DNA of 64,000 nt, taken from assembly GCA_018897155.1 (NCBI GenBank), contig JAHILE010000040.1:20157-84156 (forward strand), given 5' to 3'. Under the pieces are notes generated by a model. The model had not been told where the DNA came from. It saw nothing but the letters and a program-made list of their open reading frames with translations, and did no database searches. The translations under genes were made by a program, and so were the position numbers. This document shows positions 1,375 through 63,967 of the stretch, one piece after another (position 1 is the stretch's first letter; every line of letters begins with the position of its first letter). This DNA comes from Nanobdellota archaeon. Its GTDB lineage: Archaea > EX4484-52 > LFW-46.

Positions 1375-4300
1375 TTACTTCGCATTAAACCTTTCCAGCC
1401 CCAACTGCCTTGCTTTTTTTCCAAACAGGCTGTCAATATCTTTCTCAAGAAGCGAGAACTGCTGAAACAAATATGGCGATATCTTGTACTTTTCAATAAT
1501 ATGCTTTGTAGGCTCAACATATTTCCTTATCGCGCCTTCAGACACCGAAAGCATAAGCTTTCCTCCACAGTAGCACTTCCCGATTAAAGGTACTCTGCGG
1601 TACTTTGCATTACAGGTTGCGCACCGAACTTTCTGCTCTGAAAACGTGCGCAAATTCCCCTTTATGTCGCGAAGAAAATGCTTTGAAATAACCAACTCAG
1701 CCACAGAATCCTTATTCACGGCAACTATCTTCTCTGCAAGACCGAGTTGTGCAGTAACTTTGTCCTTCATGCTGCCAAGCTCCACATACTTTGTCTTAAT
1801 CGGCGCATCATTAACGTCGGCTGTGCCATGAGTGAACTTTATATGAAAGACCTCGGAAGTCTTTATTACATCTGCAACAAGGCGCGGCTTTTTTGTAAGT
1901 TCTGATATTGTTTTATAGTTCATGGTGTCTTCATAGAATTCAAGCGGGTATTCTGAAGAGATATCAACCCGCCATGCCTCATCATCCACTTCCTCAGGAT
2001 TAAGCTTGCTTGTAAGGACGAGTGGCGCATCCATTGTCCTCCCCCCGCGCGTGTCCGGCAAAAACTTACGAGAGAAATTAAGCAATGCATCCATCAAAAG
2101 CATTATTGAGTCTTCGTCGCCATCACAGTTTCCTGCAACAATGCCCGAGCAAATAAGGTTGTGATGCATATCAACAGTTACATCGTAAACATATTTTTCC
2201 CTGTTTTCAATAAACTTCTTGCCCACTATCTTGTCAACAAACGAATCCCCTTCAAGAACTGCTCGCGCAGTGCCTTTCTTTGTGAGCCACTGCTCCAAAA
2301 GTGCTTTGGCGCGAACTTGCTTATCTTCGACAAACCCTATTGTCTCAATATATTTTCTGGCGTCATCACCATATAATCTTATTTTATACGAATGCAAAAA
2401 TTTGGGCTTTCCGTAGAATTTTAAGATTAATTCGCTTTTTATTTCGCGGTTTTCTTCATAAATTGAATGTTTGATGCCCAAAAACATCAAAATTACTGAA
2501 ACAGAATCAATGAGCCACTTATTAACCGAGGTAACATTGACTTCAAGAGTGCTTTGAATGGCGCAGGAGCCATCGCCTGAAAAATATCCTCTTAAAAGTG
2601 CGGCAAGTTTTTCTTTTGGCAAAGAATAAACAAAATTTGGAACTCGTTTGCTTCGCGCGTCCTTTCCAACTTCGAGATAATTAAATAATTCATAAACAAA
2701 CCGCGAGCATATAGTAACTGCATTTCCGGACGTGTTTGGCGTCAAGCCAAAAACATCCTTTATTTTCGTTTCAAGATACGCTTTCACCCGCGCCTTAGTG
2801 GCAGTTATTGAAATCTGATGCGTATTTTTTTGATTTTTCTTTGTATATCCTTCGGCAAGATAAAAGCCCAGAATGCATAAAAAATCCTCGTTAAGAAGAA
2901 TCTCGGGCTTTATAGATATAGAATCCCTTTTGCTTCCAAGAAAATATTTTTTGTTTTCGAATAGATTCTGGCTAAAATGCTCAACAATATCAAGCGGATA
3001 AAACTTTCGATAAACATAATTAGTGAGTGTTTTATAATTCATCCCAAGATTAGCGCTGATTTGCGACAAAATTGTTCCGTTGCCAAAAATCTGCTCTTCG
3101 GTTCTTACCATAACATTTCTGTTATTAACGACATCAAGCAAATCTATTTTCTCAACATCAGATGTAATCGGGTTTTCTATTTGCCACGGTATTAGGACTT
3201 CGGTCGCATCTTCGGCGCGTATTTTTTCACCGCATTTGTTCAATAACAGATGGTCTGGGGTAACAACTATTTTTCTTCCGCACTTAGTTTTAATCTCTAA
3301 CAGGATTTGTGGAGCGGGATGTTTTGAAACATGCGTCATATCCGAAAGCTCGAATTTTTTGGTGAGTTTATTAAAAGCAAATGTTTTCAATCCAGCAATC
3401 GTTTTATATTCTGTTCCAAAAGCGTCTGTTTCAACCCCATCCGTAAGATTCGTCTCCACTAATTCGCGAATAGTTGATAATCTAAACTCTTTTCCATCAT
3501 GTACAATAATTTTTTCGTTGCCAAAAAAACAATTCCTTCTTTTGCCAGCATGCCAGAATGGATGCGCATAACATACTTTTGAACGAGTAAAGCCTACAAT
3601 TCTGCCCACTATGCCTGCAGATGTGTGTGGAGCAAGCCCTACAACCAGCTGACCCACCAAATCCTCTCTTGAGTTCATATTATAATACGGCGGAAGGCTG
3701 TAAAACTTTACAAGAAGCTCGTCGATAAACCTGCTGACATTCAGCATGTAATTTACTGATGAGAACTCTTCATTGTCGGATATGACAATATCCTGTACGC
3801 TCAGCTCAAGAATCTGATTCTCATTTTCAAGCGGTCTGCCCAAATAATCATTCACATAGCCTATGGATTTCAACTTTGCAACAGAAACGCCAAGCTCAGA
3901 TGGCTTGAAGTGTGTCATTGAGATATCAGAAGCATCATATCGTGTAGTGCCGTCCTTATTCACGTAAAGCTCGTATTTTGTACGAAGAACGCCTTTTTCA
4001 AGATATTCCATGCTTCTCTCAGGGCCTGAAACTCCCCTAACGCCTTTGAATAGCTTTGGCAATTGAACAACTGAAATGTTTTTGAACGCCTCATCAAGTA
4101 GCTCTTTCAATTTAATAGTCATCTTACGATATTTTTTTGTAGGCTGGTTGCAGTGCATAGTTGCTTCAACAATGGAATTACATGACTGACAAATATTTCT
4201 CGGAGTTCCGCGCACATTGCATTTTGGGCACATAGAAAATACATTCTCAGCACCGCATGAAGTGCATTTAAAGACCGGAAATTCTGCAGTTACTTTTCCG

Positions 4301-6249
4301 GAGGAATACGCCTCCATGAGATTGCGCATTTTTCCGCCTTCAATGCCGCAGGGAAAAAGTATCTGAGGCTTGCCTTTCAAAAGTCGTTTTTCCGCCTTTT
4401 CTGGTCTGCCCATTCTTATGCCTATGCGCGTCAATCCCCGTTCACGCACCCTTATTCCTGCAAGTTTTGATACTGCAGACATGGCTGATGTTTCCTGCGC
4501 AATAGATGCTAAAATATCTGCAACATTCTCTTTTGTCGGCTTTCCAAGCGAATAATATGCTCCAAGCGATTTTCCGGACAATATTACTTTTTCATCTTTT
4601 ACCGTACAAGGAGTACAAAGGATTTCAAGAATCCGAAATGATTCTGCCTTTGCAAGCGCAGCACGTTCGCCTTCAGCATCATTCTCGATTGTAGCTGTTG
4701 AAAACCATTGAATGAGTTCTTTCAATTCTCCGATTGACAAATCATGCCAAAAGAAATTGTACTCCGGATGAAGCGGTATTCCAAGCTCGCGCGCAATGTC
4801 GAAAGCCTCCGAAATCGTCGGCGGCTTTAAAGCATATTTTTCATAAGAATACTCTGAATTCTTTTCAGAAATTGCTTTTTTCAATTCCAGCAGCCACCAT
4901 TCTTTGCAATAAGCCGAGGGCATCAACATATGATTGTTTGACACAAACTCGCCATATGGAACAACAATATCCCCTAAAGAAAGAATGGACTCAACAGATG
5001 TTTTGTGCTGTTTCACTTCCTCGCGCGTCCTTAGTTCAAGAATGGTTCCATTTCGAAGTTTTACTATCGGAGGATCTATTGTATCGCAAGGCGCACAAAC
5101 AGTGGCCTTTCCAGGAAACTCTGTTGCAAGCTGAGTGCCTACTGCAATGAATTCTGTAAGCCACATCGTAGCAGGGTGCAAAGAAGTTGCTGCAAGCCCT
5201 CCTGTTCTTGAGCGGCCGTATCGTAATCTGAAACCGCCGCGTTTTGAAGGATGTGAGAATATCGGCCTTCCTGCAAGCACTTTTGAAAGATATGTGTCTT
5301 TAGGGGTATATTTTGCCGCATTCGGATTGTCTTTTAGCTCAACCTTTTTTGCAGCATGAATGCTGTTTTTCAGCTTTACAAAATCTGCAAGCCACAGCCA
5401 GTTTTTAAGATCGTATTCTTCAGGATATTTCTTCACCCTGCCAAGAACTTTCTCTGCCTTAAGCGGGATTCCGTCAAGAAGAATCAGGCACATCCCCCCA
5501 CGAATTTTATTTGTTTCAACTCTTGGAAGATCCTTGCAGGTTGAGACTTCAAGCTCTTCTGTAGGGTCTCCAGTAATTTCTACAGGAACGTTTTTTATTA
5601 TTGCGGTCATTTCCTCTTTTGTCGGATGATATTGCTTTGCAGTGACGCGCGTGTAATAATCCTCGACCTCGACAAAATACCGATTTATCTCTGCTTCTGT
5701 GGGCTTGTAAGCACCTATTTTCAGCGCCTTTCTTATGAAATCCGCTGCAAGAACAGAAACTGCTGAGGCGGTTCCTCCTGCAGACCTTATCGGGCCTGCG
5801 TAATAGACTGCAAGATAATCTGTTCCGTCATCATTCTTTTTGATAAGAACTTTTGAAATCCCCTCAAGAGGCGCAGTCACAACACCGAGTGTAAGATAGG
5901 CTACTGCAATGCGCAAACCGACCTCTGCGAATTTTTCTGCGGTTCCAAAATCTCCGTATTTTCCTATTGCAACATTCCTGCCGATAAGAAGCGCCACTCG
6001 CTCGTCATTTTTGCCGTACTTCCCCTCAAGCACCCGTATTCCTTCCTTCAACCCTGAACCAAAAAGCGTTGGAAAAAACGTAGAAACAAGGCCTTCGACT
6101 CTTGCCGCAAGGTCCTCTGCAAGAAGGATTTCAACAGTTGTCTCGGGATCTTTACCTTTTGCGCGAGCAGCTGTTGCAATAGAATATGCATTGTCAACCT
6201 CTTTTTGTATTGAGTCAAAATATTTTTGAGTCTGTGCATCAGTCTGCAT
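1375..6249 (-). CDS. DNA polymerase II (PolD) large subunit DP2, intein-containing
   Basis: The N-terminus is DP2-like ('YFDSIQKEVDNAYSIATAARAKGKDPE'). The conserved 'HPFWHAGKRRN|CDGDED' catalytic block is split by an insertion. The C-terminal Zn finger reads 'CATCNAKYRRVPLIGKCYCGG'. At 1624 aa it is larger than the ~1150 aa expected for DP2. Confidence 0.9.
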   Translation of the reverse strand: MQTDAQTQKYFDSIQKEVDNAYSIATAARAKGKDPETTVEILLAEDLAARVEGLVSTFFPTLFGSGLKEGIRVLEGKYGKNDERVALLIGRNVAIGKYGDFGTAEKFAEVGLRIAVAYLTLGVVTAPLEGISKVLIKKNDDGTDYLAVYYAGPIRSAGGTASAVSVLAADFIRKALKIGAYKPTEAEINRYFVEVEDYYTRVTAKQYHPTKEEMTAIIKNVPVEITGDPTEELEVSTCKDLPRVETNKIRGGMCLILLDGIPLKAEKVLGRVKKYPEEYDLKNWLWLADFVKLKNSIHAAKKVELKDNPNAAKYTPKDTYLSKVLAGRPIFSHPSKRGGFRLRYGRSRTGGLAATSLHPATMWLTEFIAVGTQLATEFPGKATVCAPCDTIDPPIVKLRNGTILELRTREEVKQHKTSVESILSLGDIVVPYGEFVSNNHMLMPSAYCKEWWLLELKKAISEKNSEYSYEKYALKPPTISEAFDIARELGIPLHPEYNFFWHDLSIGELKELIQWFSTATIENDAEGERAALAKAESFRILEILCTPCTVKDEKVILSGKSLGAYYSLGKPTKENVADILASIAQETSAMSAVSKLAGIRVRERGLTRIGIRMGRPEKAEKRLLKGKPQILFPCGIEGGKMRNLMEAYSSGKVTAEFPVFKCTSCGAENVFSMCPKCNVRGTPRNICQSCNSIVEATMHCNQPTKKYRKMTIKLKELLDEAFKNISVVQLPKLFKGVRGVSGPERSMEYLEKGVLRTKYELYVNKDGTTRYDASDISMTHFKPSELGVSVAKLKSIGYVNDYLGRPLENENQILELSVQDIVISDNEEFSSVNYMLNVSRFIDELLVKFYSLPPYYNMNSREDLVGQLVVGLAPHTSAGIVGRIVGFTRSKVCYAHPFWHAGKRRNCFFGNEKIIVHDGKEFRLSTIRELVETNLTDGVETDAFGTEYKTIAGLKTFAFNKLTKKFELSDMTHVSKHPAPQILLEIKTKCGRKIVVTPDHLLLNKCGEKIRAEDATEVLIPWQIENPITSDVEKIDLLDVVNNRNVMVRTEEQIFGNGTILSQISANLGMNYKTLTNYVYRKFYPLDIVEHFSQNLFENKKYFLGSKRDSISIKPEILLNEDFLCILGFYLAEGYTKKNQKNTHQISITATKARVKAYLETKIKDVFGLTPNTSGNAVTICSRFVYELFNYLEVGKDARSKRVPNFVYSLPKEKLAALLRGYFSGDGSCAIQSTLEVNVTSVNKWLIDSVSVILMFLGIKHSIYEENREIKSELILKFYGKPKFLHSYKIRLYGDDARKYIETIGFVEDKQVRAKALLEQWLTKKGTARAVLEGDSFVDKIVGKKFIENREKYVYDVTVDMHHNLICSGIVAGNCDGDEDSIMLLMDALLNFSRKFLPDTRGGRTMDAPLVLTSKLNPEEVDDEAWRVDISSEYPLEFYEDTMNYKTISELTKKPRLVADVIKTSEVFHIKFTHGTADVNDAPIKTKYVELGSMKDKVTAQLGLAEKIVAVNKDSVAELVISKHFLRDIKGNLRTFSEQKVRCATCNAKYRRVPLIGKCYCGGKLMLSVSEGAIRKYVEPTKHIIEKYKISPYLFQQFSLLEKDIDSLFGKKARQLGLERFNAK
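2128..3531 (-). other. intein (468 aa) with LAGLIDADG homing-endonuclease domain inside DP2
   Basis: It begins 'CFFGNEKIIVHDG' directly after 'AGKRRN' and ends 'ICSGIVAGN' directly before extein 'CDGDEDS'. Two LAGLIDADG motifs are present: 'LCILGFYLAEGYT' and 'LLRGYFSGDGS'. Confidence 0.75.
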
Positions 6250-7132: not shown

Positions 7133-7318
7133 AGCCCTGGGCGCGAATTTCACCGGTTCTGGGCAGACATGCGACCTCAACGAAGTTGAAGTCGCTCCTT
7201 CTTTCTTTTCCACCCGGACTTGTCTATTCTTTCTTGAAAAGAAAGAAAAGAAACCATGTTTTGAACGCACGACCTTTACCTTACCAAGGTAACGCTCCAC
7301 CAGCTGAGCTACCAGGGC
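7133..7318 (-). tRNA. tRNA-Thr(GGU) with ~115-nt intron in the T-loop region
   Basis: Minus-strand read: GCCCTGG-TA-GCTC AGCTGGTG GAGC-G-TTACC TTGGTAA GGTAA-AGGTC-GTGCG TTCAA[...]-CGCGC-CCAGGGC. The acceptor, D, anticodon and T stems all pair. The T-loop is interrupted after TTCAAA by an insert with long CT/GA-rich complementary arms. Confidence 0.6.
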
Positions 7319-8289: not shown

Positions 8290-8447
8290 GCAGGGGTAGC
8301 CAAGCGGTCAACGGCGGTGGACTCAAAAATATTGAGTTATAGACCAACACAGGCAATAACTTTAGGAAATCCACTCTCTTAGTGAGTTCGAGGGTTCAAA
8401 ACAGTTTTCAGATAAATGAAAAAACTGTGAAAATCCCTTCTCCTGCA
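8290..8447 (+). tRNA. tRNA-Leu(CAA), long variable arm, two introns (anticodon loop and T-loop)
   Basis: GCAGGGG-TA-GCC..GGC D arm, anticodon stem GTGGA/TCCAC and loop CTCAAA|intron(~41 nt)|A. A long variable arm 'TCTCTTAGTGAGTTC' follows. The T-stem GAGGG...CCCTT is interrupted after TTCAAAA by ~33 nt. The acceptor 3' strand is CTCCTGC. Confidence 0.55.
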
Positions 8448-8562
8448 TCACATTCTTGCATATAAAATAAAGAAATTACCTAAAATTTGCGCATCTCAAC
8501 CGCAGTAAAGCTGCTGGGTATTAACCCAAACTGAAAAATAAAGACACAAAAGAGCCTAAGAA

Positions 8563-9093: not shown

Positions 9094-9206
9094 TATAAAT
9101 ATTTATTCACGTTACTATATATCCTTTATTCGCGACAGCCCCAAAATCATCCAAACTTTTGAAACATTTTGGCTTTAAATTTTTGAAAAATAAAATTAGT
9201 TTTGAT

Positions 9207-9278
9207 GGACCTGTAGTCTAACGGATAGGACACGGCCTTGCGGAGGCTGAGATCCGGGTTCGATTCCCGGTGGGTTCG
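9207..9278 (+). tRNA. tRNA-Arg(GCG), no intron
   Basis: The T arm CCGGG TTCGATT CCCGG is canonical. The anticodon stem is CGGCC/GGCTG with loop TTGCGGA. The D stem is GTCT/GGAC. The acceptor GGACCTG/TGGGTTC carries three G-U pairs. Confidence 0.6.
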
Positions 9279-9303
9279 TTTTTAATCATCATGCAAGTTG
9301 TGT

Positions 9304-10238: not shown

Positions 10239-11852
10239 ATGAGCTTTAAATTTCTGTTATTCATACTCATTCTTCTTTCTCCGATTACAAATGCCGAAAT
10301 AACCATAAACGAAATAATGTACGCGCCAAACAGCAACTGGGGTGGAGAAAATAATGAGTGGATAGAATTGTTTAATAACGGCATAGAAGATGCAAGCATC
10401 GCAAACTGGACAATCGATGAAAAAACAATACCTTACGCCATCGTTCCGGCGCAAGGATATTTAATCCTTGCAAAAAACACAACAAAATTCATAGAAGTAT
10501 ACGGCCGATCGTCTGTCCGCGTACCGTTTACGCTTTCAAACAGTGGAAAGGCGCTGTACTTAAAAACAGCTGGCGGCTCAACAATAGATTCCTTCGAGTA
10601 TACAGAATACGCCACTAGCGAGATGGCCAAAAACAACAACCGCACACTTGAACGAAATACAACAATCTGGCTTGAAAGCGCTGGGGTTGGTGGAACTCCG
10701 GGAGAGCAAAACAGCATATCATTCAACGCGCCTCCGGTTCAAACTCCAATGAATGAAACGAAAAACACAACAAATACAACACCATCCACAAATACTCAAG
10801 AAAATGACAGTGATATCCCGAACACGCAACAAAATCAGGAATCAGAAAATCCAATGAGCCTCGAAATACTTGTCGCGCCGGATACAATGAACTTCGGCGG
10901 ATATTCCACGATTCGTGCAAAATTCAATTCAGGAAACCGAGACTTCGAAACAGTGCGCTTTGTAGCATACATCTATAAGCCGTCGTGGATTTTGCGCGAC
11001 CTGAATGGCAACGGAACAACGCTGCGAAATTCGCCATATAATTCAAATGCTGCTGCAGAAGTTCGAGAAATTTCCGCAGACGAAACATATTATCTCGTAC
11101 TCCCGATTTTTCTAAAATGCAACACAGAAGGATATGCTGATGCCACCTATACAGCCCGGCTGCGCGCTTATACTTATGAAAACGACGAATGGAAGGCGCT
11201 AACAGAAAGCGACATAAATATTTTTGTCAGTGGAGAAAGCGAATCTTGCAAAAAAGAAATTGGAAAAGAAACCTCGTGCATAAATAAAACAATTGAAAAA
11301 AACTGCACTGAAAAAACAAAAATATTGCGCGAATATGCGCTTGAAATCAACATCACTCACCCGGAAATTATTTTTGCCGGCGAAAATTTCACTACAACGG
11401 TTTTTCTAAAAAACAATGGCGAAAAATTGCGCGACATTGAAATATACTCATACATGTACGAGCATAGCACAATAATATCAAGCGGATTTGATGGCACAAA
11501 ATGGGGCAATACAAGAACTGCGAACTCGAGAAAAGTAACGCTTTCAGCAAACGATTCCATAACAATTGAACTTTTGAATCGGGCAAAAGAAAATGCAAGC
11601 ACGGAAAAGTACACCTATAAGGTAGTTTTTGCTGATTTGGCGGACGATAAAAAATCAGAGGAACGAATATCTCTGATTGAGCTTGATGCGCGCAATGCAT
11701 CTGAAACTAACGGCTTAAAAAACGAAACGCTTTCAAACATGACCGAAATAGAAAATAAAATTACCGGGAATATGCTTGCGAAAAACGCAGTACCGAAAAA
11801 GCTTTCGCTTTTTGACAGAATAATATATAAAATAAAAAGCTGGCTAATTTAA
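10239..11852 (+). CDS. secreted lamin-tail-domain (LTD) protein with many N-glycosylation sequons
   Basis: An N-terminal signal peptide is present. The LTD signature reads 'INEIMYAPNS...NEWIELFNNG...ANWTIDEK'. There are more than 15 N-x-S/T sequons. Confidence 0.55.
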   Translation: MSFKFLLFILILLSPITNAEITINEIMYAPNSNWGGENNEWIELFNNGIEDASIANWTIDEKTIPYAIVPAQGYLILAKNTTKFIEVYGRSSVRVPFTLSNSGKALYLKTAGGSTIDSFEYTEYATSEMAKNNNRTLERNTTIWLESAGVGGTPGEQNSISFNAPPVQTPMNETKNTTNTTPSTNTQENDSDIPNTQQNQESENPMSLEILVAPDTMNFGGYSTIRAKFNSGNRDFETVRFVAYIYKPSWILRDLNGNGTTLRNSPYNSNAAAEVREISADETYYLVLPIFLKCNTEGYADATYTARLRAYTYENDEWKALTESDINIFVSGESESCKKEIGKETSCINKTIEKNCTEKTKILREYALEINITHPEIIFAGENFTTTVFLKNNGEKLRDIEIYSYMYEHSTIISSGFDGTKWGNTRTANSRKVTLSANDSITIELLNRAKENASTEKYTYKVVFADLADDKKSEERISLIELDARNASETNGLKNETLSNMTEIENKITGNMLAKNAVPKKLSLFDRIIYKIKSWLI

Positions 11853-11876
11853 CAAATTATTAAAGTATCTCTAAAG

Positions 11877-12134
11877 ATGATTATGGCAACTCTGCAAAAT
11901 TTGGAAAAAGAAATAGAAAAACTAAAGGAACGAAACATCCGTGTTGAAGCCGACAAAGCATGGGAAACAAGCTATTCGCGGCGAATGCTTCTTATGGTGT
12001 ATACGTATCTTGCAGTTGGTTTTTATCTAAGCGCGACGTATCTTGCAGTTGGTTTTTATCTAAGCGCGATAAAAATCGCTAGTCCCTGGATGAATGCGAT
12101 AGTCCCTACAGTCGGATTATGCTTTCAACGCTGA
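11877..12134 (+). CDS. small hypothetical protein carrying an internal tandem duplication
   Basis: An 85-aa ORF; 'TYLAVGFYLSA' occurs twice because of a 33-bp DNA tandem repeat. Confidence 0.3.
   Translation: MIMATLQNLEKEIEKLKERNIRVEADKAWETSYSRRMLLMVYTYLAVGFYLSATYLAVGFYLSAIKIASPWMNAIVPTVGLCFQR
12003..12068. repeat. perfect 33-bp tandem duplication (2 copies)
   Basis: The unit 'acgtatcttgcagttggtttttatctaagcgcg' occurs twice back-to-back. Confidence 0.8.
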
Positions 12135-12347
12135 CGATGCCGTTTTTCAAGAAATTGTGGTTAAAACACAAATACGAGAGATAATAGCCCTTTTTAAAGA
12201 TGGAAAAACAATAAGAATTATCGAGCGAGTTCAAAAACATTTGATAAATATATACATAAAAAATATATACGTATTCTAGTGTCTTTTGGATTCCCGTATC
12301 CTCGCGCGTTCGTGCCCGGATATATGAAAACAAAAAAGGCGTAATTA

Positions 12348-13595
12348 ATGAAATTCGAAGAATTGAACCTTAAACCCCTTATTCTGAAAAAGATTAAAGA
12401 AGAAGGGTTTTTGGAACCGACAGAAATACAAGAAAAATGCATTCCCGAAATAAAAAAAGGACGGGATGTTGTAGGCCAGGCAATGACTGGATCGGGCAAA
12501 ACAGTAGCGTTCTGCATACCGATTATAGAGGCCGTATCTCCCGGAAGAGGAGTTCAGGCGCTTATTCTTACACCTACAAGAGAATTGTGCGTGCAGGTAT
12601 CCGACACATTCCATAAATTCGGCCGCGAGATGAACGTACACACAACCGCAATATATGGCGGCGTCGGGATGGAGCCGCAATATCATGCGCTGAAGCGCGC
12701 TGATGTTGTCATAGCAACTCCTGGAAGGCTGATGGACCATATGCGCAGAAATTCGATAAAATTAGCCGGTCTGAGATATCTTGTGCTTGATGAAATGGAC
12801 AAAATGCTCGATATGGGTTTTGTCGATGATGTTGACACCATTGTCAGAAATATTCCGAAAAATAGGCAGACTATGCTTTTCAGCGCGACAATGCCGCAAA
12901 GCATAAATTCGCTGATTCACAAATATCTGAATTCACCGCAAATTCTGCGGGCGCAGACAAAGGTTGACAAAAGCCTCCTGAAGCAGATATATTATGTTGT
13001 CGAGCAACATGAAAAATTCTCGCTTCTTGTGCATTTATTGAAGCACAAAACAAGCGGTTTTGCAATGGTCTTCTGCGGAACAAGGCATCAGGTTGATGCG
13101 ATTACCCGGAATCTGCAGAAAAACAGCATAAATTCAATGGCAATACATGGCGGCCTGACTCAAAACAGGCGAATGCATGCGCTTGAATCTCTGAAAAAAG
13201 CCAGCATTGATGTTCTTGTCGCAACAGATGTTGCTGCACGAGGGCTTGACATACAGAACGTAACGCACGTTTACAATTTCGACGCCCCGAAAACTCCTGA
13301 TGAATACACGCACCGCGTCGGAAGAACTGCAAGAGCTGGAAAAGCAGGCGATGCAATAACGCTTTTATCTCATCGGGATTTTGAAAATTTCGACCGAGTC
13401 CTGCGCGATAAAACCCTTGAAGTCAGAAAAGAAGAGCTGCCGAAATTCGAGCGCATCCATTTCAAAGCGCGCGAAGATACTTTTGTAAGAAGCGGTGGAC
13501 GAGATTTTCGTGGCGGAGGGCGTGAAAGCCAAGGCCCGAGAAAAAGCTTTGGCGCGCCCAAATTCCAGAAAAGAGTAAGATGGAAAGACGGATAA
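12348..13595 (+). CDS. DEAD-box ATP-dependent RNA helicase
   Basis: Q-motif, Walker A 'AMTGSGKT', 'DEMD' (DEAD variant), 'SAT' and motif VI 'HRVGRTARAG'. The C-terminal tail is RGG-like. Confidence 0.85.
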   Translation: MKFEELNLKPLILKKIKEEGFLEPTEIQEKCIPEIKKGRDVVGQAMTGSGKTVAFCIPIIEAVSPGRGVQALILTPTRELCVQVSDTFHKFGREMNVHTTAIYGGVGMEPQYHALKRADVVIATPGRLMDHMRRNSIKLAGLRYLVLDEMDKMLDMGFVDDVDTIVRNIPKNRQTMLFSATMPQSINSLIHKYLNSPQILRAQTKVDKSLLKQIYYVVEQHEKFSLLVHLLKHKTSGFAMVFCGTRHQVDAITRNLQKNSINSMAIHGGLTQNRRMHALESLKKASIDVLVATDVAARGLDIQNVTHVYNFDAPKTPDEYTHRVGRTARAGKAGDAITLLSHRDFENFDRVLRDKTLEVRKEELPKFERIHFKAREDTFVRSGGRDFRGGGRESQGPRKSFGAPKFQKRVRWKDG

Positions 13596-14507
13596 TCACC
13601 ATCTATGATTCGGATTTCTTGGTATTATCAGCCATGCGATTAAATACAATAATACGCCCGATCCGCCTGCAAACGTCAAAATAACCCATATCAGACGGAT
13701 AGGAACCGGATCCACGCCCAAATATTCTGCAAGCCCGCCGCAAACGCCGCCGATAATCCTGTCGTTGCCGGAGCGATAAAGCCTTTTTACCCCATTGCTT
13801 GGAATATGATGCAATTCCGTTTCTGCACTTCTGCGATGGGGTTTTGTAATGTACTCCTGAATAATGAGCTGCATCAAAAGAAGAAAATACCCTAAAAGCA
13901 AAAAGAACCAAAAGATTCCTACCAGATTCACTTTCACATATTGCGCGAGCACATAAATCACAGGGCTTACGATCATCCCGCCATCAACGAGCATTATGCT
14001 TGAAGCAATCCAGAAAAACACAGCTATTCCGAATGCAGCAGAAAGCGGAGAGACAAGCAGATGCCCGGTTCTACAGCATCTTGAAAAATATGTAAGAAGT
14101 GATGAAAAAATCAAAATAAGAATGAATATACCGATGTTCAAAAGAAAAAAATCATGCATCGCATAAAGTATTGCACTCCCTGTTCGTTGCGCAAGAAATT
14201 CAAGTGCCCAGATGCAGACTGCCAATCCCACGATGCCAATGATTATTGAAAAAATGAGCTCGATAGCGCCAAAGGGGTGATAATCCCTGCCGCAGCATTC
14301 ATTACTATGTTTCTCTATTCTTTCCCCGAATGCTTTGCCATGTTTTTCGAATCGTTTCCCAAACTCTTCGCCGCGTTCACCTAATTTTTTTCCAAGAGCT
14401 TCAGCCTCTTCGCCGAAATGCTTTACCTGCTTCTCGAATTTCTTTTTGCGGGATTCGCGCGACATGGCTGCTTTTTGTTTTGCCTTGCGCGGCTTCTTTT
14501 TTGGCAT
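13596..14507 (-). CDS. PspC-domain membrane protein
   Basis: The C-terminal 'LYRSGNDRIIGGVCGGLAEYLGVDPVPIRLIWVILTFAGGSGVLLYLIAWLIIP' is a PspC domain. The N-terminus is Lys-rich with FG(E/K) repeats. Confidence 0.6.
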   Translation of the reverse strand: MPKKKPRKAKQKAAMSRESRKKKFEKQVKHFGEEAEALGKKLGERGEEFGKRFEKHGKAFGERIEKHSNECCGRDYHPFGAIELIFSIIIGIVGLAVCIWALEFLAQRTGSAILYAMHDFFLLNIGIFILILIFSSLLTYFSRCCRTGHLLVSPLSAAFGIAVFFWIASSIMLVDGGMIVSPVIYVLAQYVKVNLVGIFWFFLLLGYFLLLMQLIIQEYITKPHRRSAETELHHIPSNGVKRLYRSGNDRIIGGVCGGLAEYLGVDPVPIRLIWVILTFAGGSGVLLYLIAWLIIPRNPNHRW

Positions 14508-17386: not shown

Positions 17387-19926
17387 TTCTTCCCCCAGCT
17401 TCCAAGCCCCTTCTGCTTTGCGCGCCCGAGTAAATCGTCTTCTGTCACGCCGAAAATGTGCAAGACGCGCAATGCTGCAGGCACAATCTGGTTGTTGATG
17501 TAATACTCCGGGTCGTAATTCTTTGCGTATTCAGTCAATTCCGCGCGATCGCTGATAGAACCGCTTCCTTTTGTAATGACGTATTCGATTGTCTCGCCGA
17601 CCCGAATTTCTTTGCCGCGCGCGTTTGCCTTCTCAACCGCTGCAACATGCGGGCCGCGCTGGACATAATGCTTGAGTTGCCGCGTAAGCTGCGTATAGAC
17701 GCGCAACTCAGTCAAAGGCACTTTCTCAAGCTTTACTTCCTGCACGATTTTTTTAACATACTCGACAGCTTCTTTCTGCCGTTTATTCAGAACCAAGTCA
17801 AGCACTTTTTCTTGAGTATCTTTTGCAAGCCTTGACCAGTCCCTGCGCACTTTTTCAAATCCGCGAATTGTGATATTGCCGTCTTTGTCTATCAGAGCAT
17901 ATCGCTTTTTCGCCCCACCCTCGCCGGCTTTCTTTGAAACAAAAATTCCGCGCACATAAATTCCCTGCAAATCAAGCTCCATTATTCCAGGAAGTGTTGC
18001 ATTCACTTTCTGCAAAAAATTATGCGCCTCAACTTCTGTATTTTTGTCGATGCGCAAAAATAAAGAATCCGTATCGCCATATAGCGCTTCAAAACCCTGC
18101 TCCTCTGCCATTGCAATGACATTCTGTATATAGTTTCTGCCGAATGCAGTGACTGCTGACGCACATTCCCTATTATACCATCGCGAGCCGGCAAAGCCAA
18201 GATACCCGTACATTGCGTTGCTGACTGTCTTTACCGCGAACTGGCGCGCATTCAGTTCGGCATAATCGCGGCTTTTCTTATCATGGAATTTCATCTTTTC
18301 CTTTATGTGCTTTCTTTCCTGGAAAAGGTCTAAAAGAATTTCCGGAATAAACCCTTTTGTATTTGTACAAAAATGGCTTCTGCTTCCAGGAATTTTATTT
18401 TCCTGCCGGTCCTTACAGCACGAACAATTCAGCGTCTCAGGATCTATGTTGTGTGAGACAATTATGCTTGGATACAATCCCCGAAAGTCAAACACGGCAA
18501 TATTTTCATGCATCCCTGCTTTCGGCTCTTTGACAAAGCCGCCGGCAAACTGCTCCATATCCTTTCGGTCTCCGATTTCCTCTGACGATGGCCGATTCGG
18601 CACAACCACATTCATCTGCGATGCTTTTTTTATTGCATAGCTTTCAACAAGCTGGCCGTAAGTCATTCGTGACGCATCGCTTGGCAATTGAGCAGTGAGA
18701 TTTGACAGCTCAAAAATATTCGGCATTATCCGGTCTGCAAGCTTTAATGTAAGCAGTGAATCCTGCATGCAATAATCCGCAAGCTCGTGAAGCCGCGTCT
18801 TCTGTGTCCAGGCATCTTTCAGCTCATCCCAGGTGAATCCTTTTTTCCCTTCACCGACTAATTCCATTGCCACACTATCAAGGGATAGCGTTTCAGAACT
18901 CATTGCCGGGGACATCACCCGGGAGATGAAATTGAAAAGGTCTATATGCGGCATGCCTTTAAGAGTTGCGGCCTTTATTCTTCCTTTTTTCTGAAAGGAG
19001 AGTGGATTACCGTTCCTGCCGGAAATGATTTTCTCCTTAAGGTCTTTTGCTCTGGAATCAAGCACAACAAAATCAAACCCGTCGCCATTATACGTAACTA
19101 TGAAGTCGGGGTCAATAGATTTTATCTCTGAAAAAAGCGTTGACATAAGCTCTTTTTCTGATTTGACAAAAATTTCTTTTTCAAATCCGTTTTTCTCATA
19201 GCTTATGACCTTTGCGCGCCCGGCAGATGATGCAAAACTCGCCATGATTATCTTCTGTTTTTTATCCTCGTCAATTGTTTCAAGATCAAATGCAACTGTC
19301 TTTAATCCATTATGAAATGATTCTGTTTTTGATGCAGAAACGTTTTTTGCTAGAATAACAATATCTGCAGAATATCCAAAACGTTCTGCATTTTCCTTCT
19401 GCAATACCTCTGTTCCTTCTGCACAAACCCATGTAAGTGGCGCTATTTTTTTGTCAAGAAAATACCGCTTGTAAAAGGATATATCATATTCGCGCACTTC
19501 TGCTATTTTTTTTGACACTATCGGATTAGTTTTTACAATAGATTTCAGATGCGGTATGTGTGCGGGAATGTTTGCAAAAACTTTCAAGATATGGCGCTTG
19601 TCAAGACCAACAGTTTTCTCAGAAACATCAACAGATTTTACAGAAATGTCCCCGCCAGAAACAGCAGTTTCATCGCCGCCATTTGCGGTTTCATCAAACA
19701 CTCTTTCAGGAGTTCCTTTCACAATTATTTTTTCAATAGCTGATTTCAACAAAAGCAAATCCTCGGTCGTTAGCCCCGGCCTTGGCACAACATAAAAATA
19801 AGGATAGAATGAGTTGTCAAGAACTATTGCAGACTTTCCTTCATGCGTCCTTCCGTAAAGCCTGACATGCGGCTTTCCATCTAGCACAACATAATCTGCG
19901 TCGATTACGAAAATATCAAATACCAT
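17383..19926 (-). CDS. polB: DNA polymerase, family B
   Basis: An exonuclease domain plus the 'YGDTDSLFL' polymerase motif. The likely start is 'MVFDIFVID' at 19926, because the ORF track's upstream extension overlaps the neighbouring gene. Confidence 0.85.
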   Translation of the reverse strand: MVFDIFVIDADYVVLDGKPHVRLYGRTHEGKSAIVLDNSFYPYFYVVPRPGLTTEDLLLLKSAIEKIIVKGTPERVFDETANGGDETAVSGGDISVKSVDVSEKTVGLDKRHILKVFANIPAHIPHLKSIVKTNPIVSKKIAEVREYDISFYKRYFLDKKIAPLTWVCAEGTEVLQKENAERFGYSADIVILAKNVSASKTESFHNGLKTVAFDLETIDEDKKQKIIMASFASSAGRAKVISYEKNGFEKEIFVKSEKELMSTLFSEIKSIDPDFIVTYNGDGFDFVVLDSRAKDLKEKIISGRNGNPLSFQKKGRIKAATLKGMPHIDLFNFISRVMSPAMSSETLSLDSVAMELVGEGKKGFTWDELKDAWTQKTRLHELADYCMQDSLLTLKLADRIMPNIFELSNLTAQLPSDASRMTYGQLVESYAIKKASQMNVVVPNRPSSEEIGDRKDMEQFAGGFVKEPKAGMHENIAVFDFRGLYPSIIVSHNIDPETLNCSCCKDRQENKIPGSRSHFCTNTKGFIPEILLDLFQERKHIKEKMKFHDKKSRDYAELNARQFAVKTVSNAMYGYLGFAGSRWYNRECASAVTAFGRNYIQNVIAMAEEQGFEALYGDTDSLFLRIDKNTEVEAHNFLQKVNATLPGIMELDLQGIYVRGIFVSKKAGEGGAKKRYALIDKDGNITIRGFEKVRRDWSRLAKDTQEKVLDLVLNKRQKEAVEYVKKIVQEVKLEKVPLTELRVYTQLTRQLKHYVQRGPHVAAVEKANARGKEIRVGETIEYVITKGSGSISDRAELTEYAKNYDPEYYINNQIVPAALRVLHIFGVTEDDLLGRAKQKGLGSWGKK

Positions 19927-40923: not shown

Positions 40924-41101
40924 GCCTCGGTAGCTCAGCTCGGTGGAGCGCGTGACTTGTACGTTAATACAAACGCGAGACTCGTACGCTCGTGATATGT
41001 CTTCAAAGCAAAGATATCACGCGGTCGAGGGTTCAAAAACAGGATTTTGTTTAAAGTGGATAACATCTCAGCATTTCCTGTGGAACTTCCCTCCCGAGGC
41101 T
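40924..41101 (+). tRNA. tRNA-Thr(UGU) with two introns (anticodon loop and T-loop)
   Basis: GCCTCGG-TA-GCTC AGCTCGGTG GAGC. The anticodon stem is CGTGA/TCACG with loop CTTGTA|intron(~55 nt)|A. The T-stem GAGGG...CCCTC is interrupted after TTCAAAA by ~50 nt. The acceptor 3' strand CCGAGGC is perfectly complementary. Confidence 0.55.
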
Positions 41102-41412: not shown

Positions 41413-43593
41413 TTATAGTTTTAAGAATTTCCAGTCCGATAAGTTATTCTCATCATAATTGTATCTTTCATTATCGTTATATCTACAACTCTCATCTTTA
41501 AAGATAATAATCCCGCCAAATAGCTTTTTATTATGCTTTTGATTTTGTGTTTTAATGTATTTGCTTAGTGCTTCTGCTTTTTCTTTAGCGACTTTTGCGG
41601 TTATTCCACTTTTAGTATCAAAAATACCTATTCTTCCATCATCAAGCATAATTACAAAATCAACATAAAATCCTCTTTCCACACCTGCATCGTCTTTATA
41701 TTTTACTGCAAGGTATTTTTTATCTGATTCTCCGTTTTTGAACCACCATTTAACAGAATTTTTTGGATTTTCAAGTAGTTTTATGAAATCTTTTTCTGGC
41801 ACACTTTCGGCAGAAATAAAATAAGGTTTCATAATTGCTTTTTTATGTGGCAATTCTTTGTATTTGCTGTTATAAGTTATTAGTTTGGGAACATTCCAGA
41901 CAAGATGCTCTGTTTCTCTTTGTTCTGGCAATCCTCCAACAATCTTGAGTTTGTATTCCTCTTTTGCTTCATTAATGCAATCAGTAAATAACTGATTATT
42001 TTCTTCTCCTAAAATTATCTTTTGAGCAAAAGTTTCATCTTCGATTTTTATTACTTTTTCAAAAAACTTATAGAGTGCTGTTCTTATTCTTCCTTGTGAA
42101 TCAGCAGGAGCAAAAGGAGTACAGCTTCCTCTTACAAATAAGTCAAATCTATGTTGTAATTCAACAGCACTTAACTTAAATTGCATTTCTCCTTTATGTT
42201 CTACTGTTTGAACTTTATCTAAAACCAATATTTTTCCATCAACCATTATTTTAGTTACGAGAGATTTTGGCTTTAGATTTATTTTCTTTGCAAGTTCGCT
42301 TTTTTGTGCAATTTCTAAGAATAATTTTGTAAATTCTCCAGAAAGTCTTGTCTTTTCTCTTTGTCTTATGAGATAGATTGAATTAAGATCAATATTGCTA
42401 TATAATTCTTCTCTTCTTTTTGCTTCGTAAATTGTGATATAATCTTTAGCGACTTCTTCAGTTATGTTAATGTCAGCAAGATTTGTGAATACATAACCTT
42501 TATTCAATTCTTCAGTTTCATAATGCTTAAACTCTGGCATTCTCATTATTCTGCCTACTGTCTGAATGGTAAAGTCCATACTTTGCATATCTCTGAACAT
42601 TACCAGAATGTATGCTCTTGGACAATCCCAACCTAATGCTATAGCTTGTTTGAAAATAAGAACTTGAACATCGTTATCAGGCATTTCAATATTCTCAAGG
42701 TTGGTTTTTTCTTCTGATAAATAAATCCCTAATTTTCCGTTTTCTGTTGTTATTTTGAATTTATCTCTTAAAATTCCCGTAATCTGTTCTTGCCTGTCAA
42801 TAACTCCTGTCTTTTTATCAGGAAGCTGAATTAAAATTAATGGATTGATATCGGATTTTTCTTTTTCTAATAGTTTAAGCATTTCCTGTCTTTTCTTTAA
42901 AGCACATTCAATAACTAATTCATCAGGAGATTTGTCAGAAACTTTTCCTTTGTCTAATTCTGGATTTATGGCAATTTCTTTCTTTATCATTCCCTCTTTT
43001 CTTACATCTTCAAATTCTACAAGAACATTATAAAAAGAATGAATGTGCGGAGTAGCTGAAACTTCCAAAATTACATCGGGATCAATATCATTTATTAAAT
43101 TTCTTGAAGTTTCTGTTTTAGCAGTAAAGTGACTTTCGTCTATAATTAAAACTATTTTTGTGCCGTCTTCTTTCGTGTTTTCAATAATTTTAGATAAATT
43201 TCTTTCCTGTTCATTTTCTCTAATATAAACATTATCTGTTTTGTTTATGCTTTCCCAATTCAAGAACAAAATTTCATCTGGCTCAATTTTATTACCTACT
43301 AAATCTTCAAAAAATTTACACTCTATCGCTCTTGTCGTAGAATAATATTTATCTAATTTTTCTTTACTTTGTGTATGTAATTGTCTTGGAGCTGTCCAAA
43401 TAAAAGCGATTTGCTTTCCATCGTCTCTTCTATCAACAAGTCTTTTAATAAATTCGGCCACCATTAAAGTTTTACCAGAGCCTGTCGGAGATTTAAAAAC
43501 TAAAGTTTCTCTTGAATCTCGATTTAGTAATTCGTTAATCTGTTCTTTTAGTTTTAAAATTGCTTTCTCTTGATAATCTTTAATTTCAATCAT
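41413..43593 (-). CDS. Type III restriction enzyme Res subunit (SF2 helicase + PD-(D/E)xK nuclease)
   Basis: Walker A 'SPTGSGKT', DEAH-like 'LIIDESH' and a C-terminal 'VDFVIMLDDGRIGIFDTK' nuclease motif. Confidence 0.75.
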   Translation of the reverse strand: MIEIKDYQEKAILKLKEQINELLNRDSRETLVFKSPTGSGKTLMVAEFIKRLVDRRDDGKQIAFIWTAPRQLHTQSKEKLDKYYSTTRAIECKFFEDLVGNKIEPDEILFLNWESINKTDNVYIRENEQERNLSKIIENTKEDGTKIVLIIDESHFTAKTETSRNLINDIDPDVILEVSATPHIHSFYNVLVEFEDVRKEGMIKKEIAINPELDKGKVSDKSPDELVIECALKKRQEMLKLLEKEKSDINPLILIQLPDKKTGVIDRQEQITGILRDKFKITTENGKLGIYLSEEKTNLENIEMPDNDVQVLIFKQAIALGWDCPRAYILVMFRDMQSMDFTIQTVGRIMRMPEFKHYETEELNKGYVFTNLADINITEEVAKDYITIYEAKRREELYSNIDLNSIYLIRQREKTRLSGEFTKLFLEIAQKSELAKKINLKPKSLVTKIMVDGKILVLDKVQTVEHKGEMQFKLSAVELQHRFDLFVRGSCTPFAPADSQGRIRTALYKFFEKVIKIEDETFAQKIILGEENNQLFTDCINEAKEEYKLKIVGGLPEQRETEHLVWNVPKLITYNSKYKELPHKKAIMKPYFISAESVPEKDFIKLLENPKNSVKWWFKNGESDKKYLAVKYKDDAGVERGFYVDFVIMLDDGRIGIFDTKSGITAKVAKEKAEALSKYIKTQNQKHNKKLFGGIIIFKDESCRYNDNERYNYDENNLSDWKFLKL

Positions 43594-45337: not shown

Positions 45338-45391
45338 TTATTTGTTCCCCTTTATTCTCAATATAACCTATGATGTTTATTAATGTTTTTC

Positions 45392-46030
45392 TTATTTAAC
45401 CATTGTGTTGCATTCTTCTAATCTTTCACAAAGCAAACTGGCAAAACTCAGATATTTTAATGCCCTGTTTTTATCTTTTTGGATAATATTCTCATGTCCC
45501 TTTGGGTTTCTTATACCCATTATTGCACCTGCATAAAGATGCATAAATCCTTCTTGTTCATCTTTATCTGATTGGGATACAAGTCCATTCATTTTTAGTA
45601 GAGGGCTATTTACACTAAAAGCAGTTAGCATAAGACTTTTACCATCCAAGTCTTTGCGACAAGATTTCTCTTTAACAAGATTATTTATTTTCTTAAAAGC
45701 CTCAAAAATTGCTTGAGCATAATGTTTATCATAAAATAATTTTTTACTGACGGATTCTATTTCAGGATGGATATTTAATAATCTAAAATATTCCACTTCT
45801 GTTTTTTTCCCTTCATAGAAATCCGCATTATTTTTTTGAATCCAACCTTTATCCTCTAAACGTAAGAATTTTTTACAGGATTTAAGTTGCATTAAAATAT
45901 TTGAGCAGGTTATTTGATATTCGTCAAAAAGTTTGTTTTTTACGTCGCTTGGCCTTCTATGTTCTAGAAAGTATCCATTTTTCCATAATTCGCTTATTGC
46001 AGTATTTATTTTCATGTTAATCAGATACAT
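45392..46030 (-). CDS. hypothetical protein in RM island
   Basis: A 212-aa ORF with no catalytic motif recognised. It lies on the same strand immediately upstream of mod. Confidence 0.35.
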   Translation of the reverse strand: MYLINMKINTAISELWKNGYFLEHRRPSDVKNKLFDEYQITCSNILMQLKSCKKFLRLEDKGWIQKNNADFYEGKKTEVEYFRLLNIHPEIESVSKKLFYDKHYAQAIFEAFKKINNLVKEKSCRKDLDGKSLMLTAFSVNSPLLKMNGLVSQSDKDEQEGFMHLYAGAIMGIRNPKGHENIIQKDKNRALKYLSFASLLCERLEECNTMVK

Positions 46031-46394
46031 AAGCCCATTTCTTTAATTTTGTCCCATTATTTAGCGTCTTGGTCTTTTTAAGAGAGCCATTCCTAACAAT
46101 ATTCCTTAGTGGGAGCGTAATGTCTGATGCTTTAAAATGGTAGTCTTTTTCTTTTAACTTATCCAACATTTCTTTTACAGTTCTAGGTTGATTAAAAAAG
46201 TTTCCTAAAGAAAGAATCTTCTCAGTAGTGCTTCCTTTTCTGTACCAGTTAGCTAATTTCTCACTTTTCACTTCTTTGGATTTAGACGCTGGCTCTTTGC
46301 GTTCTAAAAGGGTAATTCTTCTTTCATGGTCATCAAGAATTGCCTTAAACTCTTTTTCTGTTATCATCTTTATCATCTCCGAACATAAACCCAC
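46017..46394 (-). CDS. small winged-helix-like protein, paralog 1
   Basis: Its C-terminal half aligns with ORF 46373..46741 (ILxxGFFNxPxxxxE...KKWxYV). Confidence 0.4.
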   Translation of the reverse strand: MGLCSEMIKMITEKEFKAILDDHERRITLLERKEPASKSKEVKSEKLANWYRKGSTTEKILSLGNFFNQPRTVKEMLDKLKEKDYHFKASDITLPLRNIVRNGSLKKTKTLNNGTKLKKWAYVSD

Positions 46395-46741
46395 TTTTTC
46401 TCTTGTTTAATTCTTCTTAATTCCTTACCTTTTACCAATCCTAGAACTATTGCAGATAAGGTGGTAATTGGGATAAATGTTCCTTGTTCTTCAAGCCCTT
46501 GTTTCAATTCAGCCAGACTTTTTGGCTTGTTAAAAAATCCTTCTGCAAGAATCTTTCTGATAGTATCTGTTATAGTTGGTTTTGAATTAGCCTTAGCTTT
46601 GATAAATTTTTTAAATTCTTTTGCAGGAGTTTCAGGAGTTTTTTCATCTTTATATAGATTCATAACTTTTGAAATCTCTTCTGGAGTACCCTCTATAACA
46701 ATTTTAGTCCCATCTTTTGTTTCAATATTTGCTTTAGTCAT
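46373..46741 (-). CDS. small winged-helix-like protein, paralog 2
   Basis: 'TITDTIRKILAEGFFNKPKSLAELKQGLEE...KKWVYVRR'. Confidence 0.4.
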   Translation of the reverse strand: MTKANIETKDGTKIVIEGTPEEISKVMNLYKDEKTPETPAKEFKKFIKAKANSKPTITDTIRKILAEGFFNKPKSLAELKQGLEEQGTFIPITTLSAIVLGLVKGKELRRIKQEKKWVYVRR

Positions 46742-59221: not shown

Positions 59222-59251
59222 TCGGCGGTTAGAAATTGGAGTGGCCCCGTT

Positions 59252-59498
59252 GAGATTTATTCATGCCGAATCAGCAGCGGACAGGTGACTGCACCGAAGG
59301 TGCAATCGCCCTAAGCGCCGACCGATTACGCGGCCGTTGAACTCAAGACCTCCGGCTCACTAAAACGCTAAGCGCAAGTAAGCACTTGGATTTGGGCAGG
59401 ACAAACTGTTCGCCCAAACGTCATATAAGACCGGCGCTCCTTCTGGCGGAATTTCGCGAATTTTTGGCAAAACCCGAAACCAGCTGAGCTACGGGACC
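59252..59498 (-). tRNA. multi-intron tRNA (~247 nt), anticodon UAU (Ile) if canonically spliced; introns in D-loop, anticodon loop and T-loop
   Basis: Minus-strand read: GGTCCCG-TA-GCTC AGCTGGT[39 nt]G GAGC-G-CCGGT CTTATA[~65 nt]A GCCGG-AGGTC-TTGAG TTCAA[~85 nt]CTCAA-CGGGGCC-A. All four stems pair once the three inserts are removed. Confidence 0.4.
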
Positions 59499-63893: not shown

Positions 63894-63967
63894 AGCAGAG
63901 GGTGGGATTTGAACCCACATAAACGGGCTTTGCAGGCCCGCGCCAAACCGGGTTAGGCGACCTCTGC
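63894..63967 (-). tRNA. tRNA-Cys(GCA), no intron
   Basis: Minus-strand read: GCAGAGG...CGGGC CTGCAAA GCCCG...GTGGG TTCAAAT CCCAC CCTCTGC-T. It sits directly after the ogt stop. Confidence 0.7.

Follow-up and report, generated by a model that had tools for sequence, protein, structure and literature searches.

A 113-nt bulge-helix-bulge intron in the T loop of an archaeal tRNA-Thr(GGU) gene, one copy of a structured and apparently mobile intron family

Introns whose boundaries form a bulge-helix-bulge (BHB) at non-canonical positions such as 59/60, and tRNA genes with several introns, are known in Archaea (PMC5829648, PMC8450103, PMC4033280), and DPANN lineages with a modified splicing endonuclease EndA have many disrupted tRNA genes (PMC5829648). 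In the Thermoproteales, intron families common to different tRNAs are known (PMC4090602 and PMC4033280, both of which cite Fujishima 2010). Archaeal tRNA introns have been described as relatively short, under 100 nt, and the gain of BHB introns is an open question for which reviews ask for 'snapshots' of insertion events (PMC4033280). In this study, we describe a tRNA-Thr(GGU) gene located at 7133..7318 on the minus strand of a 64,000-nt stretch of DNA from a Nanobdellota archaeon (contig JAHILE010000040.1, positions 20,157 to 84,156; hereafter the window). We consider it very probable that this is a functional gene with a 113-nt BHB intron between positions 59 and 60, and that the intron is one copy of a structured family spread among the tRNA genes of the lineage. 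Taken alone, the intron is unremarkable for the BHB class, and the interest lies in the family around it.

The tRNA-Thr(GGU) gene and its T-loop intron

When nucleotides 7147-7259 are removed in silico, the 186-nt gene becomes a 73-nt molecule that ARAGORN accepts as tRNA-Thr(GGU). All four stems are present: a 7-bp acceptor stem, a 4-bp D stem, a 5-bp anticodon stem and, after a 5-nt variable loop, the T stem GUGCG/CGCGC, which contains one G-U pair and closes the 7-nt T loop UUCAAAU. The 7-nt anticodon loop UUGGUAA is uninterrupted, the gene includes the discriminator U73, and CCA is not encoded. The 5′ exon (7260..7318, minus strand; tRNA positions 1-59) ends in GUGCG, UUCA and AA, and the 3′ exon (7133..7146, minus strand) consists of U60 and the 3′ strands of the T stem (CGCGC) and of the acceptor stem (CCAGGGC), followed by the discriminator U. 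An earlier note on this DNA, made from the letters alone, had proposed a tRNA-Thr(GGU) at 7133-7318 with an intact anticodon loop and with four stems that require the removal of an intron, and each of these proposals was borne out, with the correction that the gene lies on the minus strand. The T-loop site that it gave for the intron also stands, and the length of ~115 nt is revised to 113 nt.

In the raw window, the gene is invisible to ARAGORN, with or without the intron options, and to Rfam at the gathering threshold. Under permissive settings, the Rfam tRNA model yields a partial match at 7255-7311 (25.8 bits, under the cut-off of 29 bits) that runs from model position 8 to 63 and corresponds to a tRNA without its 3′ T-stem and acceptor strands. 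Some 24-42 nt upstream of the gene is an A/T-rich stretch, TTTTTAAACTAATAAAAAG, which may be an archaeal promoter.

Our strict scan, which accepts a BHB with two 3-nt bulges and a 4-bp helix between them, gives a single motif compatible with the cloverleaf, gtgcg-UUCA-(AA↓A)-c...g-UGAA-(AU↓U)-cgcgc, in which the arrows mark the predicted cuts. The 5′ half (7259..7270, minus strand) comprises the T-stem strand GUGCG (7266-7270), the central-helix strand UUCA (7262-7265) and the bulge AA↓A (7259-7261, cut after 7260), and the 3′ half (7141..7152, minus strand) comprises the central-helix strand UGAA (7149-7152), the bulge AU↓U (7146-7148, cut after 7147) and the T-stem strand CGCGC (7141-7145). 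The outer helix is the 5-bp T stem itself, and the 4-bp central helix pairs U54-A57 with the 3′-terminal UGAA of the intron. Canonical BHB geometry puts the cut, on either strand, two nucleotides 3′ of the central helix, and the same rule yields position 37/38 in anticodon-loop introns. For the tRNA-Thr(GGU) gene, the rule sets the intron (7147..7259, minus strand) between 59 and 60, with UUCAAAU as the mature loop. A fold constrained to the cloverleaf and the BHB reaches -67.1 kcal/mol compared with -70.2 kcal/mol for the unconstrained minimum free energy structure, which represents a cost of 3 kcal/mol, and the unconstrained structure of the precursor does not contain the cloverleaf.

The motif is not of a kind that arises readily by chance. 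Removal of T-loop BHB introns followed by ARAGORN produces three tRNAs in the window and none in each of 20 dinucleotide shuffles. Among 20 T-loop introns of the lineage, the central helix has all four pairs in 17 and three of four pairs in the other three, and a tRNA is called by ARAGORN after splicing in every one of the 20. Moreover, the intron strand of the central helix covaries with the host loop: UUCA is matched by UGAA or UGGA, UUCG by CGAA and, at position 37/38, CUCG by CGAG or UGAG. The strict BHB at the junctions, the cloverleaf and this covariation support the proposal of the earlier note that a protein-spliced intron is situated near 59/60, a proposal that it had made dependent on the formation of a BHB.

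The exons and the intron are conserved to different degrees in two relatives, GCA_040960625.1 (L004) and the metagenome-assembled genome LFW-46 (GCA_902384675.1; L008). The MetAP proteins of these genomes are 79% and 75% identical to that of the window, and the exons of the Thr-GGU gene are identical in both at 73/73 positions (59/59 in the 5′ exon and the whole of the 3′ exon). The intron is 80% identical to that of L004, and at the same site L008 has an unrelated 41-nt intron. This pattern is that of exons under purifying selection and of an intron that is free to vary outside the parts that form the BHB.

The T stem of the precursor (G49-G53 with C61-C65) would extend into the 4-bp helix U54-A57/UGAA, which would be flanked by the 3-nt bulges, with the closing helix of the intron beyond. 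The archaeal splicing endonuclease EndA would cut both bulges, an RtcB-type ligase would join the exons to restore the T loop and would circularize the intron, and modification of the T loop and addition of CCA would take place after ligation. Exon ligation and intron circularization have been documented for other archaeal tRNA introns (PMC12558985, PMC4090602). In several relatives, a 3x1 internal loop replaces the 5′ bulge, and the BHB of the Thr-GGU gene is near the strict form. Therefore, some relaxation of endonuclease specificity is probably needed in this lineage; DPANN EndA proteins with an L3 insert have been linked to more tRNA disruption (PMC5829648).

Several points weigh against our interpretation. 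The inner helix beside the 5′ bulge is weak and consists of one C-G pair, a 2x1 loop and the 4-bp helix GGUU/AACC. Both the splicing and the exact cut sites are those that we infer from BHB geometry. No EndA was found by Pfam among the ~50 open reading frames (ORFs) of the window, nor by tblastn in the fetched related loci with an M. jannaschii EndA query of unverified sequence, and no RtcB gene was found within the window or the fetched loci. Finally, the Thr-GGU copies compared are those of the window and the related loci, and an intronless copy elsewhere in the genome would fall outside that scope.

The common fold and the members of the family

The conserved core of the intron extends over 7154..7256 (minus strand; 100.8 bits with our covariance model R1) and is bounded by a closing helix, P1 (7250-7258 with 7153-7159). 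Within it lies hairpin A (7223..7251, minus strand), in which a CU-rich strand is paired with a GA-rich strand, GA1, followed by the linker AGACAA and by helix P2 (7158..7218, minus strand), which is formed by UCCGGGUGG (7210-7218) and CUGCCCAGA (7158-7166). P2 encloses a purine-rich single strand, GA2 (7196-7211, minus strand), and a G+C-rich hairpin B (7171-7195, minus strand). Each member of the family, when folded singly, adopts this same three-way architecture; the consensus of P2 is UCYGGGURG with CUAYCCRGA, and hairpin B often has a UUCG loop. The earlier note had seen in the intron a long CT-rich/GA-rich hairpin, which is indeed present as hairpin A but is only one element of the three-way fold.

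Compensatory changes argue that this fold has been maintained. Both sides have changed in 5 of the 13 pairs of hairpin A, hairpin B has compensatory changes in 9/9 pairs, and one pair of P1 is A-U in seven sequences and G-C in seven. Across the core, 16/35 pairs have changed on both sides and 92.5% of the cells of the alignment are paired, compared with 48-54% in slid controls, figures that are somewhat inflated because the alignment was fitted to the model and so favours structure, which adds to the points set against our interpretation above. Helix P2 was missed by RNAalifold when a plain MAFFT alignment was used, and the structure was therefore specified manually on the basis of the folds of single sequences. 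Even with permissive filters, the intron has no match among the Rfam families.

The two purine strands are related by mirror symmetry. In each of the two sequence variants of the family, GA2 mirrors the purine strand of hairpin A at 13/13 or 12/13 positions; the mirror pairs are AAAAAGAGAAAGA in one variant and AAGAAAGAAUAGA against AAGAAAGAAAAGA in the other. The relation is present in the window (7196-7251, minus strand) and in L004, L006, L009, L016, L018, L031, L036, L039, L042 and others. An intramolecular triple helix requires such symmetry in its sequence. Watson-Crick pairing of GA2 with the CU strand was considered and set aside, since it works for one variant and poorly for the other, whereas the mirror relation fits both.

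The existence of a family is already apparent from a BLAST search of the Thr-GGU precursor against related loci, which matches the T-loop intron of another gene, Arg-GCG, in L009/L010 and L006/L007 (89% over 57 nt). The search was then widened by scanning 185,579 species genomes, metagenomes and a viral collection with a 19-nt core motif and by applying the covariance model R1, with ~0.2 Mb of DNA of the lineage searched for copies. The motif has seven matches in LFW-46 alone, the metagenomes add seven true members, and no copy was found in the viral collection. Approximately 24 bacterial, viral or other matches per collection were discarded because nhmmer shows no extension beyond the motif; this number is close to the chance expectation (~35 for 596 Gb by our own arithmetic). 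Model R1 identifies 16 full-length copies at 60-111 bits in the window and its relatives, exactly one of them in the window (7154-7256).

At position 59/60, the family is found in at least 11 different tRNA genes, with Thr-GGU, Thr-UGU, Leu-CAA, Arg-GCG, Pro-GGG, Pro-CGG, Asp-GUC, Ser-GCU, Ala-CGC, Cys-GCA and a class-II tRNA as hosts. The canonical position is also used: in three genomes (L039, L049 and L043), a family member occupies position 37/38 of Ser-CGA, and the L039 gene is called by ARAGORN unaided, with a 106-nt anticodon-loop intron. Because the anticodon loop CUCGAA of Ser-CGA is close to the T-loop sequence UUCRAA, the common target looks like YUCRAA. Taken together, the family looks like one that has spread in this DPANN lineage at YUCRAA loops, mostly in the T loop and once in the anticodon loop of Ser-CGA.

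Signs of mobility and alternative explanations

The family differs in its presence between close relatives. The Arg-GCG gene is intronless in the window and in L008, has the family intron at 59/60 in L009 and L006, and has a different intron at this site in L004; the occupied and empty orthologous genes have identical exons. Likewise, the Cys-GCA gene of L072, which has a family intron at 59/60, is identical to its intronless counterpart in the window over the first 62 nt, after which the two sequences diverge. Furthermore, the similarity of the introns does not follow the orthology of their hosts. The Thr-GGU copy of the window is 89% identical to an Ala-CGC copy of a JGI genome, 83% to an Asp-GUC copy of LFW-46 and 75% to the Thr-GGU copy of L004; the Ser-CGA copies, in contrast, cluster by host (87-95%). 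On these grounds, the family is apparently mobile.

The copies also vary in orientation and composition. The core is inverted relative to the tRNA in Ser-GCU of L029 (800-909), in the JGI genome's ortholog of the Thr-UGU gene of the window (L070, 1258-1359) and probably in a third tRNA, in L067 (1144-1235), and in these copies the ends that form the BHB keep their polarity and P1 is retained. An extra two-hairpin module is inserted in family members of L008, L012, L072 and L031, and the 59/60 intron of the L004 Arg-GCG gene (10914-11012, minus strand), although different in sequence from the family, consists largely of the same module (..CUUGGAAAGCUUGAAAAUUCG..UUUCAAGA). This sharing indicates that the introns are modular or chimeric. 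What remains in the short introns of Leu-CAA in the window, in L004 and in L009 is a P1-like helix (CAGUUUU/AAAACUG) together with the BHB, at a site that is occupied by a full member in L008; we read these introns as deletion derivatives. A degenerate LFW-46 copy with an inserted module (L031, 3667-3824, plus strand) has no recognizable host tRNA and is flanked by the end of an ORF on one side and by the 3′ end of a tRNA-Ala gene on the other.

One possible reading of these observations, which we offer tentatively and hold to be rather doubtful, is that the ~100-nt core may be a self-propagating element whose fold, with its mirror-image purine strand, is kept for its own spread or persistence and not for tRNA splicing, and which would colonize YUCRAA loops either way round and be made phenotypically silent by the BHB machinery of the host. 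If this were true, the presence and absence of introns in Arg-GCG and Cys-GCA and the inverted copies would be snapshots of BHB intron gain.

A second possibility is that the core is primarily a mobile element at the DNA level, similar to a miniature inverted-repeat transposable element (MITE) with the inverted repeat CRGUUUC/GRAACYG, which inserts into tRNA genes or recombines between them and is tolerated because a BHB is recreated. Such an element would account for the inverted cores with their retained end polarity, for the degenerate copy apparently outside any tRNA, for the chimeric introns with two-hairpin modules (L008, L012 and L072) and for the lack of congruence with host orthology, and reviews have placed the gain of Thermoproteales introns at the DNA level (PMC4090602). 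However, the terminal repeat has undergone the compensatory A-U to G-C changes described for P1, which resemble those of an RNA helix, whereas the site of a transposase would be conserved in sequence. In addition, every copy but one sits precisely at a BHB-compatible site, the junctions show no target-site duplication, no transposase is associated with the copies, and viral contigs contain none of them. The IS200-type gene of the window (46884-47447) sits 40 kb away, and no link between it and the intron was found. Even the inverted copies could have come from recombination between the arms of a resident intron. We therefore regard a primarily DNA-level element as unlikely, and it is in any case a refinement of the family of BHB introns proposed here and not a replacement for it.

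It is very improbable that the Thr-GGU gene is a pseudogene that was inactivated by the insertion of a repeat and is no longer spliced. The absence of a call by the standard tools and the dispersed nature of the inserted sequence are what would be expected of such a gene, but its exons are perfectly conserved in three genomes in which flanks and intron diverge, and the insertion preserves a BHB in which the strand contributed by the intron covaries with the loop of the host. Moreover, the same arrangement occurs in four of the six tRNA genes of the window and in most of those in related loci, and if all tRNAs with T-loop introns were pseudogenes, the organism would be without many essential tRNAs.

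A self-splicing intron of group I or group II, or one with a known guide RNA such as the C/D box RNA of archaeal tRNA-Trp, would suit an intron that is long for the BHB class and highly structured, but its probability is negligible, because 113 nt is far too short for a group I/II ribozyme (core over 200 nt), the permissive Rfam search returned neither a match to the intron nor a snoRNA-type hit near threshold, a direct reading of the intron sequence reveals no RUGAUGA/CUGA box pair, and the presence of a BHB makes a ribozyme unnecessary.

The host lineage, its other tRNA genes and related systems

The window has a G+C content of 40% and encodes the archaeal proteins PolD DP2, PolB, Cdc48, fibrillarin/Nop5 and Orc1/Cdc6, besides SecDF and other proteins, and a MetAP identical to its own is labelled 'Nanoarchaeota archaeon' at NCBI. 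Relatives whose MetAP is 73-79% identical keep the order LTD protein, MetAP, tRNA-Arg, ORF, tRNA-Leu, ..., tRNA-Thr, PolD, and LFW-46 shares both gene order and intron family with the window. From this similarity, the window would belong to the LFW-46 lineage. LFW-46 is a reduced, host-dependent DPANN archaeon of the GTDB phylum EX4484-52 in which 18 tRNA types were detected (PMC8561730). The expectations of the earlier note, that the DNA comes from an archaeon rich in non-canonical introns and that the trait belongs to a lineage and is not an isolated defect, agree with these proteins and with the number of T-loop introns: they occur in four of the six tRNA genes found in the window and in most tRNA genes of the loci fetched by MetAP, which were chosen by protein and not by intron.

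The three other tRNAs for which the earlier note had claimed introns at the same T-loop position are all real, and the shared position holds for two of them. The tRNA-Leu(CAA) gene (8290..8448, plus strand) contains two introns, one of 41 nt at 37/38 (8328-8368) and one of 33 nt at 59/60 (8401-8433), the latter with a perfect BHB and a 7-bp inner helix; its L008 ortholog has a full family member at 59/60. In L006/L007 (~11720-13830), just the last ~11 nt (CUUCCCCUGCA) of tRNA-Leu(CAA) are left, adjoining a phage-type integrase gene, and a second integrase gene is located at 18764-19654, which suggests that an integrated element targeted the tRNA-Leu(CAA) gene there. The tRNA-Thr(UGU) gene (40924..41101, plus strand) also contains two introns, one of 54 nt at 37/38 (40962-41015) and one of 50 nt at 59/60 (41038-41087). 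In the latter, the central helix UUCA/GGAA has 3 bp and an A-G mismatch, and this register keeps 7+7 nt between the helices and gives the loop UUCAAAU. The strict alternative GUUC/GAAC, with a 52-nt intron, was dropped because it would leave a T loop of 5 nt. Directly downstream of tRNA-Thr(UGU), the region 41413-47447 (minus strand) contains a helicase/ResIII gene and an N6/N4 DNA methylase gene (a restriction-modification-like pair), Hypoth_Ymh and an IS200-type Y1 transposase. This region may be a mobile island, and no link between it and the introns was found.

The tRNA-Ile(UAU) gene (59242..59498, minus strand) contains three introns, in the D loop (59441-59477), at 37/38 (59358-59423) and in the T loop (~59257-59336), and its L004 ortholog (~1850-2077) has the same three. 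The central helix of the T-loop intron is GUUC/GAAC in the ortholog and GUUC/GAAU in the window. The intron is probably at 58/59, with the mature loop UUCAAAU; the assignment to 59/60 was rejected because it needs a 5-nt 3′ bulge and because the ortholog favours 58/59. A UAU isoleucine tRNA is unusual in Archaea, is reported for Nanoarchaeum and Korarchaeum, and would imply decoding of AUA without agmatidine. The two remaining genes of the window, tRNA-Arg(GCG) (9206..9279, plus strand) and tRNA-Cys(GCA) (63894..63967, minus strand), are intronless. Outside the main family, a splice-and-test scan alone identified T-loop introns in Leu-UAG (34-42 nt) and Arg-CCU (89 nt), in the loci L016 (~7140-7190, minus strand) and L036 (~3265-3354, minus strand).

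Inteins in the polymerases of these genomes are also distributed unevenly. The large PolD subunit DP2 of the window (1375-6249, minus strand; 1624 amino acids) contains an intein with a LAGLIDADG endonuclease domain, and its orthologs in L004 (1160 amino acids) and L008 (1156 amino acids) are without it. PolB contains an intein in L009 (1268 amino acids) and none in the window (890 amino acids).

Only the two intronless genes of the window, Arg-GCG and Cys-GCA, are found by ARAGORN, with or without intron options, and by Rfam at the gathering threshold; the intron options -i, -i0,300 and -ps add no tRNA on the raw window because ARAGORN models anticodon-loop introns only. This yield of two of six and the mere 18 tRNA types of LFW-46 (PMC8561730) indicate that T-loop introns can mimic missing tRNAs. 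Introns of 20-160 nt in the T loop can thus make DPANN genomes seem to be without essential tRNAs and distort inferences on completeness and codon usage. With regard to the gain of introns, the lineage supplies a long and recognizable family, orthologous sites with identical exons of which some are occupied and others empty, copies in two kinds of loop with YUCRAA in common, and inverted, chimeric and miniaturized copies, and together these features make models of the gain mechanism testable.

In our full-text literature searches, no description was found of a long intron family with a covarying ~100-nt fold, a strong T-loop preference, inverted copies or presence/absence differences in EX4484-52-like DPANN. 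The family resembles several known systems. MITEs and palindrome-associated elements that are mobilized in trans are likewise short, non-coding, multi-copy and bounded by inverted repeats, and they occur in either orientation, as does the family, one copy of which lies outside a tRNA. Unlike in MITEs, the terminal repeat here covaries as an RNA helix does, the sites are BHB-compatible tRNA loops, and no target-site duplication or partner transposase was found. The box C/D intron of archaeal tRNA-Trp is also a long BHB intron with a conserved structured RNA, and both would be released as a circle; the present intron differs by having no C/D boxes and no Rfam match, by its T-loop site and by its many copies over many tRNAs.

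The transposing introns of the Thermoproteales are a closer parallel. In these archaea (Fujishima et al. 2010, Mol Biol Evol 27:2233, as summarized in PMC4090602 and PMC4033280), near-identical introns are found in tRNAs of different specificity, at canonical and non-canonical sites, and the similarity of the introns is incongruent with tRNA orthology, as it is here. The family described here differs from them in its ~100-nt core with a covarying three-way fold, in the occurrence of both orientations, in the common YUCRAA loop and in the presence/absence differences between close relatives. To our knowledge, the Thermoproteales introns are mostly short, and inverted copies of them have not been reported.

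The non-canonical BHB introns of Archaea (Thermoproteales, Thaumarchaeota, ARMAN and other DPANN) share with the Thr-GGU intron the BHB at the junctions, a location outside 37/38 and the possibility of several introns per tRNA, and the host group is one that has already been reported to have many disrupted tRNA genes. Compared with these introns, the present one is found in an EX4484-52-like DPANN archaeon in which the T loop is the predominant site, it measures 113 nt instead of under 100 nt, and its BHB is near the strict form and not the relaxed one.

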